Source of the DNA: Candidatus Omnitrophota bacterium
GTDB taxonomy: Bacteria; Omnitrophota; Gorgyraeia; Gygaellales; Profunditerraquicolaceae
Direction of reading: 5' to 3'
Length of the DNA: 61,093 nucleotides
Assembly: GCA_016867115.1 (NCBI GenBank)
Contig: VGKG01000006.1
Coordinates: forward strand, 1 to 61,093
Position numbers and translations under genes: made by a program. Each line of letters opens with the position of its first letter. Within the stretch, counting starts at the first letter, position 1. Under the pieces are notes generated by a model. The model was given only the letters and a program-made list of their open reading frames with translations. It did no database searches and was not told the origin of the DNA. Below, piece after piece: positions 32,601 through 35,600 of this stretch.

Positions 32601-35600
32601 GCCTGTGCTCCTGGGTGAGACTATCGATGCCCGCGGCTGCTGCAGGCACATGGGCCTTCTGGCAGCAGTGGTCCTGGAATATATGATCAAGCAGAATAAA
32701 CTGCACGGCTACGCCTATTATTTCCGCGGTAAAGGGCATGGCTGGGCAGTCTACCGCAACAGCGCCGGCACATGGTTTGTGCTGGATGCTGCCCAGCAGG
32801 GACAGCCGGTGGGCATTGATTCCACATACTTTAGCGGCATAAGGCCGTATGCCTACAAGGAAGCCATGCACCCGTCTTTCTTCGATTCTGACGATGATTC
32901 AAATGATGATCCCAAGACGCGGCCGAATGACGTGACTATGCCGAACTGGGATCCTTCAGGCGGCAAGAGATTCACTCTGATCGGCACCCTCGTCGGCGGC
33001 CTGATTGCCGCACCTTTCATCCTGAGCGGCGTGCCGTTTGGCTGGTTGCCTTTGGCTATCGGCATGGCTATAGACGGATCGATTATAAAGAAAGAGCTTA
33101 ACGCCGAGCTCGCCAGGCTCAATAGCCTCTCTTCGCAGACTCCTTCAGGCCAATCTGATAATGCTAACCGGCAGCAGACCCAGGAAGTGCCGGGAATGCC
33201 GGCTTCGCCTGTTCAAGGGCCTACTGCACCTGCGAATGCGCAAGGCGACGGCAATAGCGGCGTAGGTTCAAGGGTCACTACTATCGGCAGCCAGAATCCG
33301 GTGGGGACTACGCCTCCAATGTCTATTATGCCGCCTGCCGGGGCAGCCTTACCTATTATAACTAGCCAGCAACACCTTCAATCCATAGGAGCGATCCCAC
33401 GTACTTTAAGCCCGGGTGTGAGCCAGACGCCTGAGACTGCGCAATCTCAGGGCGTGGTTCCAAACAAGAGCGCAAAAACCAATGCAGATTTAGCTTCAGC
33501 CGCTCCTTCTGAAGTTAGGTCTGAACCCGGAATTCAAGGAGTCGAAGTATCGGCCCACGCAGAAGTCGGGCAAGCAAGGCAAGGTTCTGCACAAGATTTT
33601 GCAGGAACTGAAGGTGCCCAGAGTGCATCCGAAGAAAATGCAGCAAGAACCCAGGGTGCCAGGGGTACGCCTGATAAAGATAGCAAAGAAACTGCTGAGC
33701 CGGCAGGTAATACAGTTTCCGGAAACGGAAACAGTGGTGCTAAGGGTGCAGCTGTTACTACTCAGGCTACGTCTGTGGCAGAAGATGGTGCTCAGGCAGT
33801 AGGCGTAACAGAACGTCCTCATAATATTCATACCGAAGAAGCAGCCAATCCATCAGGTGCCCGTAGTCCGCCCGCTGAAACTGAAAAATCTTTAAGCGAA
33901 ACCGCAGTAAAAGCTCAAGAATCCCCAGATTCTGCCTTACCGTCCCAGGCTTTAACTACTAATCCGACTACCCAGCCGCAAACTGAACCTACCGTGGCAG
34001 GTGATTCAGAGGCGGCTATTGTTGTTCATGAGGGCGCCGGCCCCTCCTCCAGGGAACTGACCCCCGGCGCCCTCATGGCAACTTCCTTAGATTCAGTACC
34101 GTCGCAAGATACCAGAGTGGCAGGAGACATTTCGGCTAACCAGCCGCAAACTGAACCTACCGTGGCAGGTGATTCAGATGCGGCTAATGTTGTTTCCGGA
34201 GGCCTTGCGGCCCCCACCTCCGGGGAACTGACCCCTGCAGGGCTTCCGGGACAACATAATCAGAGAGGTGATGTAAAATGTGCAGGAACTTCAGGGACCT
34301 TATCTTCACCCACTTCGTTGTCGCTTCCGAGGGCGCGGTCTTCGGGAGCGCGCGTGAGAACGGAAACAACCACGTCCACAACTTCCTCATCGAAGGCAGC
34401 AGAGTCAGACAGCAGCACGGCGATGAATGGTACGAGCTTGAAACAGAGTTCGCCCGCATCGTCAGAGAAAGAGCAGAAGCAGGCTACGGAAGTATCCCCG
34501 TCTATCGGACAAACAGGTTCCTCTACTAGAGGAGGTGCAAAATGGTTAAGATCAATTATGAATACCTTGAGATCGACCACATCGTGGATTTCGTCCACGA
34601 TGCCACCGTCTTTGCCGCAGCCAGGGAGAACGGAAACGGCCACATGCGCATCTTCCTTATCAACGAAGCCACAGCCCGCGTCTACACCCGAAACGGCAGA
34701 GCAGACTCATGGGAACAGCTCTACGGAAGCGAACGCGACACAGTCATTGCCCGCCTCATCTCTGCGCGCAACAAGAACGTCCCGGTCTACAGGATCAACG
34801 GCAGCGGCTCCAGTAACACAGGGACAGTCCCCTGCGGGGACAGTCCCTGTGATTGGAGCCGCTGTTGCCACGCGCCTGGCCGTAATTCCGGACCATGCCG
34901 CAGACGGAAAAGGCCTGCCGACTGCGATCGGCAGGTATTTCAGCGGCTTATCCATGGGCGGATGGGTGAGGGTTTCTGCAAAGAATGATAACGCGTTGAA
35001 TGAAGCGCTCACCTATTTAGAAGACCATACTACATTAAGCAGGATGACCCTGCTGAAACATGTGGTTGTGCGCCGCGGCCCTCCAGGATTTGATAAGCCC
35101 TCCTTTAACCTCACCAATCCTATTACCGGAACGCGCACCGTTTATTTAAGGCAGAACGCCTCCCTTGATGAGATCGTGCATGAGCTGCTGGCTGCGCAGG
35201 GAGGCCTGCGCCACCACGAAGTGATCCTGCTTCAGTCCAGCATCCGCTACGGCCAGCCTATGCAGACGCTGCTTAGCCGCATGCGCGGCAGAGTAGCTGA
35301 CCACACCGCAGTAGGCGAGATGGAGAGGCTCCCTGCCAGAGAGAGGACCCACAAAGAGGTAGAGCTTCTTGAGCTGATCAATCACCGCAACCGCCGCGCC
35401 GAAAGGTTCCTCATCCAGGGTTCTATCGAACACTATGTAGGCCTGGAATTATATATGGCGGATGAGATCTTAGCTCATATGCCTTCGGAGCATAAGGAAG
35501 TCGTCTCCCTGGCCCGGCTCTACTGGGAGATGATCACTATCGGGGTAATGCTCAGGAAATACGTACATGATTATCGGGCCGACACCATCTTTCTCACCTT

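Follow-up and report, generated by a model that had tools for sequence, protein, structure and literature searches.

Probable small genes nested out of frame in a giant gene of Candidatus Omnitrophota and the structured RNA leader that accompanies them

Can a very long bacterial gene be read straight through other genes on the same strand without either message being lost? The question is raised by a stretch of 61,093 nucleotides from a Candidatus Omnitrophota bacterium (contig VGKG01000006.1, called the window throughout), which is contig 6 of a 1.47-Mb genome that is 94% complete. From position 11614 onward the window is occupied by a giant open reading frame (ORF), and inside it, in another frame of the same strand, lie two small ORFs, A and B, each preceded by a Shine-Dalgarno (SD) sequence of its own. 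The original prediction, made from the letters alone, took A and B for two paralogous genes that stay translatable within the giant gene. The analysis described here makes it probable that they are real nested genes, read through by the giant ORF. The best reading of the locus is a conserved, self-contained cassette that the giant frame +1 reads as a low-constraint linker and that consists of at least one leader of ~145 nt, a strong SD sequence, one or two genes of a family of 83-92 aa and a long 3' hairpin. The coding features are as follows.

11614..61092, + strand: giant ORF that hosts the cassette, frame +1, more than 16,493 codons, open at its 3' side at the window end
34264..34271, + strand: SD sequence of ORF A, AGAGGTGA, 6 nt before the ATG
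34278..34529, + strand: probable nested gene A, 83 aa, frame +3, A clade of the small-protein family (homology, codon usage, selection, tree)
34530..34537, + strand: SD sequence of ORF B, AGGAGGTG, directly after the stop codon of A and 4 nt before the ATG
34542..34988, + strand: probable nested gene B, 148 aa, frame +3, B clade (homology, AlphaFold 2 (AF2) model, tree)

Both SD sequences were found to be properly spaced from their start codons, and the products of A and B were confirmed as paralogs, with 36% identity in BLASTP (E 1e-10). Frame +1 across the two ORFs was borne out on translation as a stop-free reading rich in Ser, Thr and Pro. The predicted preference of the nested ORFs for codons that avoid stops in frame +1 also held, with ATC used for 11 of 12 Ile codons, GTC for 12 of 15 Val codons and CTT or CTC for all 8 Leu codons. 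No NTA codon and a single NTG codon occur in A and B; the corresponding figures for the giant frame outside the cassette are 22% for TTA, 33% for CTG, 23% for GTA, 31% for GTG and 20% for ATA. The avoidance matters because it is precisely such codons that can give rise to a TAA, TAG or TGA when read in the giant frame. When the small ORFs were recoded in simulation with synonymous codons drawn from the usage of each one's own locus, the giant frame stayed free of stops in 1.1% of trials for A and 0.4% for B. Codon-usage log-odds, calculated in 240-nt windows over the whole giant ORF, favoured another frame in a single segment, 34234-34893, and the frame favoured there was +3. The extent of B required correction: the ORF exists as predicted, and its homologous, folded part comprises the first ~90 residues (34542-34811), after which the stop usually seen in relatives is missing, so that the ORF is over-extended by 58 residues (34812-34985) that represent genuine giant-gene coding sequence read out of frame. 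The window sequence was reproduced in Logan contigs from four lake-water metagenome runs, one of which spans 34149-34798 with no difference, and frame +1, whose breakage in reads was to count against the prediction, is intact in these independent contigs. A strain variant among them carries gaps that total 27 nt, a multiple of three, so that the giant frame is kept. A strain variant in run X2 shows several changes together with two compensating 1-nt indels at 34799-34814, the junction at the conserved end of B.

Which of the overlapping frames is under selection was evaluated by the Nei-Gojobori method over 107 pairs of small ORFs with a synonymous divergence (dS) of 0.05-1.5, ORFs shorter than 80 aa being left out. 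For the small frame the ratio of nonsynonymous to synonymous divergence (dN/dS) came to 0.28, compared with 1.11 for the giant frame and 1.52 for the third. The frame-specific check proposed with the prediction thus places selection on the small frame and not, as the refuting outcome named with it would require, on frame +1 only. Giant-frame stops were absent from all 43 distinct small ORFs, where recoding predicts a mean of 5.0 (median probability of zero stops, 0.001), whereas the third frame contained 8.42 stops against 8.43 in simulation. The small frame is that of a protein under purifying selection, and the giant frame is constrained only to stay open. The start signals of relatives, whose erosion would mark the ORFs as relics, were conserved as well: the start codon is kept, GGAGG lies at -16 to -4 of the ATG in 39 of 43 small ORFs and its four-base core in 42 of 43. 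As background, GGAGG was found before 5 of 632 out-of-frame ATGs in the giant ORF of the window, that of B being among the five. Five ORFs without an assignable start and four duplicate proteins had been left out of the small-ORF set.

How far is the arrangement shared? In a six-frame search with A, 25 of 61 related genomes gave a match, and a six-frame search of a species-level genome collection gave 39 loci; the matching open frame was always short (73-158 aa). A family-profile search matched 88 of 401 sampled Omnitrophota genomes, all of them, among the matches listed, in the class of the window. The question whether homologs are free-standing or nested, posed with the original prediction, was answered by finding both kinds, the nested one in many genera. 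All seven loci of the first set are nested on the same strand within a frame that is open over the whole 1.7-3.2-kb locus, as are 38 of the 39 loci of the second set, with open stretches of up to the full 12 kb; the exception, L031, is a locus that starts inside the small ORF and in which the long frame ends 73 nt beyond it. Nesting was also seen at 15 of 20 distant loci, the other five being free-standing, and at 15 of 29 loci obtained with a free-standing query, the other 14 being free-standing; these sets overlap, several loci being common to more than one. The relative frame is constant across the nested loci of all four sets (giant = small +1). This recurrent nesting in the same relative frame and the dN/dS of 0.28 in the small frame give comparative support to the same-strand dual coding that had been proposed, and A and B are, as inferred from these sequence data, putatively translated independently of the giant frame.

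The family to which A and B belong is largely invisible to standard annotation, since gene callers do not nest one gene in another. Among 5.8 billion proteins, a word-indexed search turned up just one relative of A (83 aa, 84% identical, on a contig of 1,362 bp). A profile search of 1.84 billion representative proteins returned 248 clusters at E<=1e-3, with 103 at E<=1e-10, and no long protein carrying the family as an in-frame domain was present among the 150 matches listed of the 248, all of which measure 59-148 aa. The structure of B alone, for which a prediction had been suggested, was modelled with confidence by AF2 from an alignment of 38 sequences (predicted local distance difference test (pLDDT), 89.5; predicted template modelling score (pTM), 0.80), with a topology of five strands, one helix and a last strand. 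A predicted complex of B with A scored 0.02, which counts neither way. A search of the ESM Atlas gave no usable match, and homologs of B were not found in phage, plasmid and viral-contig collections. HopBA1 (PF22079), the sole Pfam match for A, was rejected at 16.2 bits, below the cut-off of 27 (E 0.0093), and B gave no Pfam match. The small protein matches none of the families searched, and the roles as immunity protein, chaperone or regulator offered at the outset stay suggestions.

In a maximum-likelihood tree of the family, which is unrooted and leaves out ORFs shorter than 80 aa and locus L070, the A clade (11 rows, support 100/98) and the B clade (34 rows, support 96/92) are both wholly nested, and a third, mixed group holds the free-standing members. 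Among the latter are the homologs of 13 loci, drawn from other families of the same class, that are flanked by mraZ on one side and by rsmH on the other; at a fourteenth locus, cut by the contig end, rsmH alone adjoins the homolog.

L075-L088: free-standing mraZ-rsmH homologs
L072:2992-3252, - strand: example of such a homolog

The calls of mraZ (PF02381) and rsmH/mraW (PF01795) were made with Pfam for two loci and with tblastn, using those two proteins, for the others. At two loci whose ORFs were listed, ftsL-like and penicillin-binding-protein-like genes follow, as at the head of a division/cell-wall (dcw) cluster; other free-standing copies adjoin unrelated genes. The family thus exists also as an ordinary stand-alone small gene. 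That free-standing members exist, and that the giant reading shows no amino-acid constraint, favours the view that a long ORF came to read over a pre-existing gene and not that the small ORF arose within it. In this respect the predicted engulfment of an older operon by the giant ORF stands; the direction of the event, drawn from an unrooted tree, can only be inferred. The paralog between mraZ and rsmH points, as the sole functional lead and not as a result, to a link with the cell envelope and division or with the ribosome.

The cassette also comprises an RNA leader and a 3' hairpin, neither of which figured in the original prediction.

33959..34103, + strand: RNA element copy 1, an orphan without an ORF directly behind it (covariance model, 60.3 bits; minimum free energy (MFE), -58.8 kcal/mol, z -5.6)
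34130..34277, + strand: RNA element copy 2, the leader directly 5' of ORF A (covariance model, 73.6 bits; MFE, -62.5 kcal/mol, z -6.2)
34799..34867, + strand: near-perfect 31-bp hairpin directly after the conserved end of B (-58.7 kcal/mol, z -10.0)

The leader unit, of ~145 nt, lies upstream of the small ORFs, comprises two hairpins and is conserved in nucleotide sequence irrespective of frame. In hairpin 1 the outer stem is AGCCGC/GCGGCU; the inner stem varies, and the tip, C-GUGGCA-G, is invariant. Hairpin 2 is built on a GUUGUNN/NNACAAC stem, which continues as a long variable stem up to the conserved CC(U/A)CCUCCAGGGACUGACC apex, and the SD sequence follows 5-15 nt beyond it. Copy 1 shows the C-GUGGCA-G loop in hairpin 1 and CCUCCAGGGAACUGACC in the apical region of hairpin 2, and in copy 2 the hairpin-2 loop CACCUCC is complementary to GAGGUG of the SD sequence. 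The two copies form a direct repeat with a spacing of 168 nt, a multiple of three, and in all the leader copies checked the spacing is a multiple of three, which keeps them in one frame relative to the giant ORF. A further full leader copy was not found elsewhere in the genome. A covariance model, built from three equal-length copies and their MFE structure and followed by re-alignment of all copies, gave 54 matches in 557 kb searched on both strands; all of them lie on the strand of the small ORF, beside the cassette, at one to four per locus. In the 54 copies 93.3% of the cells were paired, a percentage inflated by an alignment fitted to the model, against 65.4% in shuffles and 44-51% in slid controls. 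Double-sided changes were present in 42 of 44 pairs, and the covariation score was 0.654 vs. 0.179, a value reached by none of 500 shuffles. G-U pairs are numerous, by which the fold is assigned to the sense strand. Unconstrained single-sequence MFE folds returned the two-hairpin architecture in most of 31 elements, with differing stem sequences, and MAFFT with RNAalifold on unrefined alignments returned the P1 stem only. Rfam gave just three unrelated weak matches (E 0.11-0.58) for L003 (window 32778-36026) and seven related loci. The leader is a well-supported new structured RNA motif of a kind that lies out of reach of searches confined to intergenic sequence, and its fold has the additional duty of staying stop-free in one frame.

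Two other identities considered for the RNA were rejected: a type III toxin-antitoxin system, which would combine short tandem RNA repeats with a ToxN/AbiE-type toxin, because the RNA repeats are structured units of ~150-190 nt and PADLOC gave no match for A or B, and an intron or ribozyme, as no Rfam match supported a self-cleaving ribozyme or a group I/II intron. A scan of 33300-35300 for promoter and terminator consensus sequences gave nothing above shuffle expectation on the + strand; a TATAAAT-like word was seen by eye just 5' of the leader in AT-rich relatives. At L056, L057, L059, L063 and L064, distant nested loci that lack the GUGGCA leader, other long stable hairpins lie ~20-110 nt 5' of the small-ORF ATG, before the SD sequence, and may be leaders of an analogous but unrelated kind. 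Hairpin 1 was also noticed as an isolated copy at 41285-41328, 7 kb downstream in the giant gene, with the same CCGUGGCAGG tip, in the same frame and with compensatory changes in its stem; neither a hairpin 2 nor a small ORF follows it.

The 3' hairpin is read by the giant frame as ..QGQSPAGTVPV... Of 35 relatives, from which loci with N or an insufficient flank were left out, 15 showed a stable structure after the last cassette ORF (z < -2 when scored against segments from the locus itself; median z, -1.7), and no such structure was found after cassette ORFs that are followed by another cassette ORF. An identical palindromic stretch of 32 nt occurs at 34819-34850 and 45349-45380, the only two copies in the genome, both in the giant gene and in the same frame. 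Over 34822-34872 the contig depth, summed for the four metagenome runs, increases by a factor of about four to thirteen, which makes it probable that the sequence recurs in other organisms or loci. When diverged giant genes are compared, a 12-kb locus often still aligns in nucleotide sequence in its cassette alone; L027 and L028, for example, are 80.5% identical over 5409-6257 and hardly anything aligns elsewhere. The giant-protein sequence flanking the cassette in the window has few relatives among the other loci. Such an island fits strong selection amid fast-evolving flanks and leaves room for movement between giant genes.

A mechanism for the cassette can be sketched tentatively. The 30S subunits would initiate independently at the SD sequence and ATG of A, and B would be translated by coupling to A. 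The loop of hairpin 2 (ACCUCC), which imitates the anti-SD sequence of the 16S rRNA, would pair with the SD sequence and hold the nested genes off until the masking structure was opened by a giant-frame ribosome or by a bound factor. The output of small protein would then be tied to the synthesis of the giant protein in place and time, and the small protein could be a co-translational partner or a regulator of the giant protein. Masking of the SD sequence with unmasking by the ribosome is, on present evidence, rather less likely than not.

Several observations weigh against the reading of A and B as nested genes with a regulatory leader. The missing early stop of B and its out-of-frame tail of 58 aa are odd for a well-tuned gene. 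The sequencing runs listed for the locus are seven, all of lake-water DNA, with no RNA run among them. Pfam, NCBIfam and PADLOC assigned no family to A, B or one free-standing homolog; a profile search of PDB sequences gave nothing at E<=1; Foldseek of the B model against the PDB gave nothing at E<=1e-3, by which a novel fold is not shown; and the best match of the B model in VIA-align wide (AcrIF13, Z 5.2) falls inside the stated noise of the tool. As to the leader, the inflation of its paired percentage by model fitting has been mentioned, and the loop ACCUCC and the SD sequence GGAGGU, complementary as they are, are both near-invariant, so that covariation cannot probe their pairing. Orphan leader copies with no SD sequence behind them keep the CCUCC loop, which may for that reason have another purpose. 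More distant nested loci have other hairpins in place of this leader, so that it is dispensable for nesting.

The same features can also be read in other ways. The cassette could be a processing point, where a double-strand-specific RNase such as RNase III cuts the long helices, sets free a small message with A and B and divides the giant transcript; the open frame would mainly hold ribosomes on the RNA up to the cut and so avert polarity. Very stable helices do flank the ORFs (-62.5 and -58.7 kcal/mol, z -6.2 and -10.0), hairpin 2 (~22 bp) and the 3' hairpin (31 bp) are long perfect helices, and in the 15 of 35 relatives with a 3' structure it stands after the last ORF and not after internal ones; in addition, cleavage of giant transcripts or proteins is left open in the part of the giant-gene literature drawn on here (10.1101/2023.11.21.568195). 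A cut would, however, give a non-stop upstream piece and a leaderless downstream piece, to which a frame kept continuous in 43 of 43 ORFs is ill-suited, and the 3' hairpins are frequent but not universal. We regard processing as unlikely to be the main purpose of the cassette; it is in any case compatible with the nested genes being real. Spread is the central idea of another explanation, in which the cassette is a selfish or mobile module moving between giant genes and kept open in the host frame like in-frame palindromic elements, its conservation being due to recent transfer and not to any service for the giant gene. The flanks, mostly non-homologous between loci that share 72-80% nucleotide identity in the cassette, would agree with this, as would several copies per genome on different contigs, the tandem duplication of leader copies and the isolated copy of hairpin 1 located 7 kb downstream. 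Yet the cassette borders showed no transposase, recombinase, terminal repeats or target duplications, the A and B clades are deep, well supported and nested throughout, phage, plasmid and viral-contig collections hold no homolog, the small frame is under purifying selection as in a cellular gene and a housekeeping paralog resides in the dcw cluster, so that a mobile origin of the conservation appears rather improbable.

If the small ORFs were untranslated relics or by-products, conserved through constraint on RNA or DNA or through the giant protein, the loss of the usual stop of B in the window would be readily understood. The dN/dS of 0.28 in the small frame against 1.1 in the giant one, the conservation of ATG and SD sequence, the confident AF2 model obtained from the family alignment, the codon-usage signal in frame +3 and the free-standing homologs, which are ordinary genes of an mraZ-rsmH operon, all speak against this, and we hold it to be very improbable. 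A programmed frameshift from the giant frame, yielding a truncated giant protein with the small domain at its C-terminus, would have the required direction (-1) and an SD-like sequence and strong RNA structures nearby, both of which are known frameshift stimulators. Nevertheless, a TGA at 34269 closes frame +3 three codons ahead of the start of A, and relatives too have stops just upstream; no slippery heptamer is conserved, the spacer between SD sequence and ATG being GTACCATG, GCAAAATG or TGTAAAATG by locus; the ATG itself is conserved; and the structures that would stimulate a shift are found 5' of the supposed site instead of 3' of it. Frameshifting is accordingly given hardly any credence, and real nested genes that the giant ORF reads through are retained as the probable reading.

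How does such a locus compare with known systems? Same-strand nested genes as such are already known. In Bacillus subtilis, comS, a 46-aa lineage-restricted regulatory peptide, is encoded out of frame on the same strand within srfAB, both frames being used. The cassette ORFs resemble it in being small genes with their own start signals inside a very large multi-modular gene. Unlike comS, they belong to an old family of a folded protein with free-standing paralogs that is conserved across many genera of the class, they have, within the taxonomic order to which the window belongs, a dedicated structured leader and often a 3' hairpin, and the giant host reading is without amino-acid constraint. 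Rz1, inside the phage lambda spanin gene Rz, is a same-strand nested ORF in an alternative frame that is independently translated, and overlaps of the Rz/Rz1 and gndA type are usually read as overprinting, i.e., as a new ORF arising within an older gene. A same-strand, fully nested ORF in an alternative frame, translated independently, is likewise reported for gndA inside gnd of Escherichia coli. In contrast to Rz1 and gndA, the small family exists here on its own, and it is the long ORF that appears to have been extended over it. The leader is similar to SD-sequestering leaders (translational riboswitches, RNA thermometers and ribosomal-protein leaders) in being a covarying element 5' of the SD sequence and ATG with a loop complementary to the former; it differs from them in lying inside a translated ORF and having to be stop-free in one frame, and in occurring as one to four tandem copies, some with no ORF behind them, and belonging to no Rfam family.

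The host is itself of a known type. The giant ORF carries an N-terminal Peptidase_C39 domain (residues 183-265), a GT4 glycosyltransferase, PEP-utilizers_C and a SEC-C motif, and with more than 16,493 codons, its N-terminal C39 domain and related loci that come from Candidatus Omnitrophota it qualifies as an Omnitrophota giant gene. An N-terminal C39 domain is a general trait of these genes according to the sections of West-Roberts et al. (2023, bioRxiv 10.1101/2023.11.21.568195) on which we rely, and the same sections describe 'Archaeovorin'-type giant genes, which the host resembles in its extreme length, N-terminal C39 domain, glycosyltransferase and Sec-related pieces (10.1101/2023.11.21.568195). 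They leave unsettled whether giant transcripts and proteins are cleaved or remain whole (10.1101/2023.11.21.568195). Nested, out-of-frame or overlapping genes, or an internal RNA element, are not mentioned in 10.1101/2023.11.21.568195 or 10.64898/2026.06.07.730766, supplements aside, and the papers listed by a literature search, none of which mentions Omnitrophota, gave no earlier report of nested genes in Omnitrophota giant genes. What appears to be new is the nesting of an old folded-protein family, the dedicated structured leader, the class-wide conservation, the giant-gene hosts and the extension of a long ORF over existing genes. As a natural example of dual coding kept up over the long term, the cassette is unusually clean: selection acts at the protein level in one frame, and the other is bound only to stay open. 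It suggests that giant genes grow by reading through neighbouring genes, and it offers an entry point to the question whether giant transcripts and proteins function intact or as fragments.

A second family of nested small ORFs was observed in related giant genes. It consists of apparently helical peptides of 43-52 aa with the core ..EE(M/L)(K/R)xLETQY.., each with GGAGG 5-8 nt 5' of its ATG, and in 11 of 11 matches the third frame (giant +1) is the one used, with the peptide ORF placed 290-420 nt 5' of the B-type ORF. The loci are the following.

L027:5466-5600: second-family peptide
L028:5475-5621: second-family peptide
L034:5475-5606: second-family peptide
L038:5481-5621: second-family peptide
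L040, L022, L017, L020, L032, L025 and L039: second-family peptides

In the window, no peptide of this family was found by single-query tblastn. Since the second family occurs together with B-type ORFs, both alternative frames of the giant gene carry a gene in those lineages. A broader and decidedly speculative picture may be drawn, in which giant genes are 'operons without stop codons'. Independent small genes would occupy both alternative frames, the beta-rich family of 83-92 aa in frame -1 and, in other lineages, the helical peptide of 43-52 aa in frame +1, each with its own SD sequence. The new class of RNA would sense the giant-frame ribosome or a ligand and unmask the nested start, the small protein would be a cis-acting factor for biogenesis or control, and the mraZ-rsmH ancestry would tie the giant protein to a programme of cell division and ribosome modification. 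As a whole, the picture is more apt to be wrong than right.

Some minor observations concern the giant genes themselves. Runs of masked N are present in those of loci L014 and L034, where neighbouring frame assignments are unreliable. In the window, an IS200-like Y1 transposase gene (PF01797, 9059-9640) and a gene for an ORF6N/Rha-type regulator (PF10543, 10527-11027) are located just 5' of the giant gene start. Within the giant gene, a direct repeat of 80 nt occurs at 40121-40200 and 41165-41244, the two copies being 74% identical and 1,044 nt apart, and the second of them (41165-41244) lies ~30 nt 5' of the isolated hairpin-1 repeat copy, which as a repeat extends over 41276-41337.

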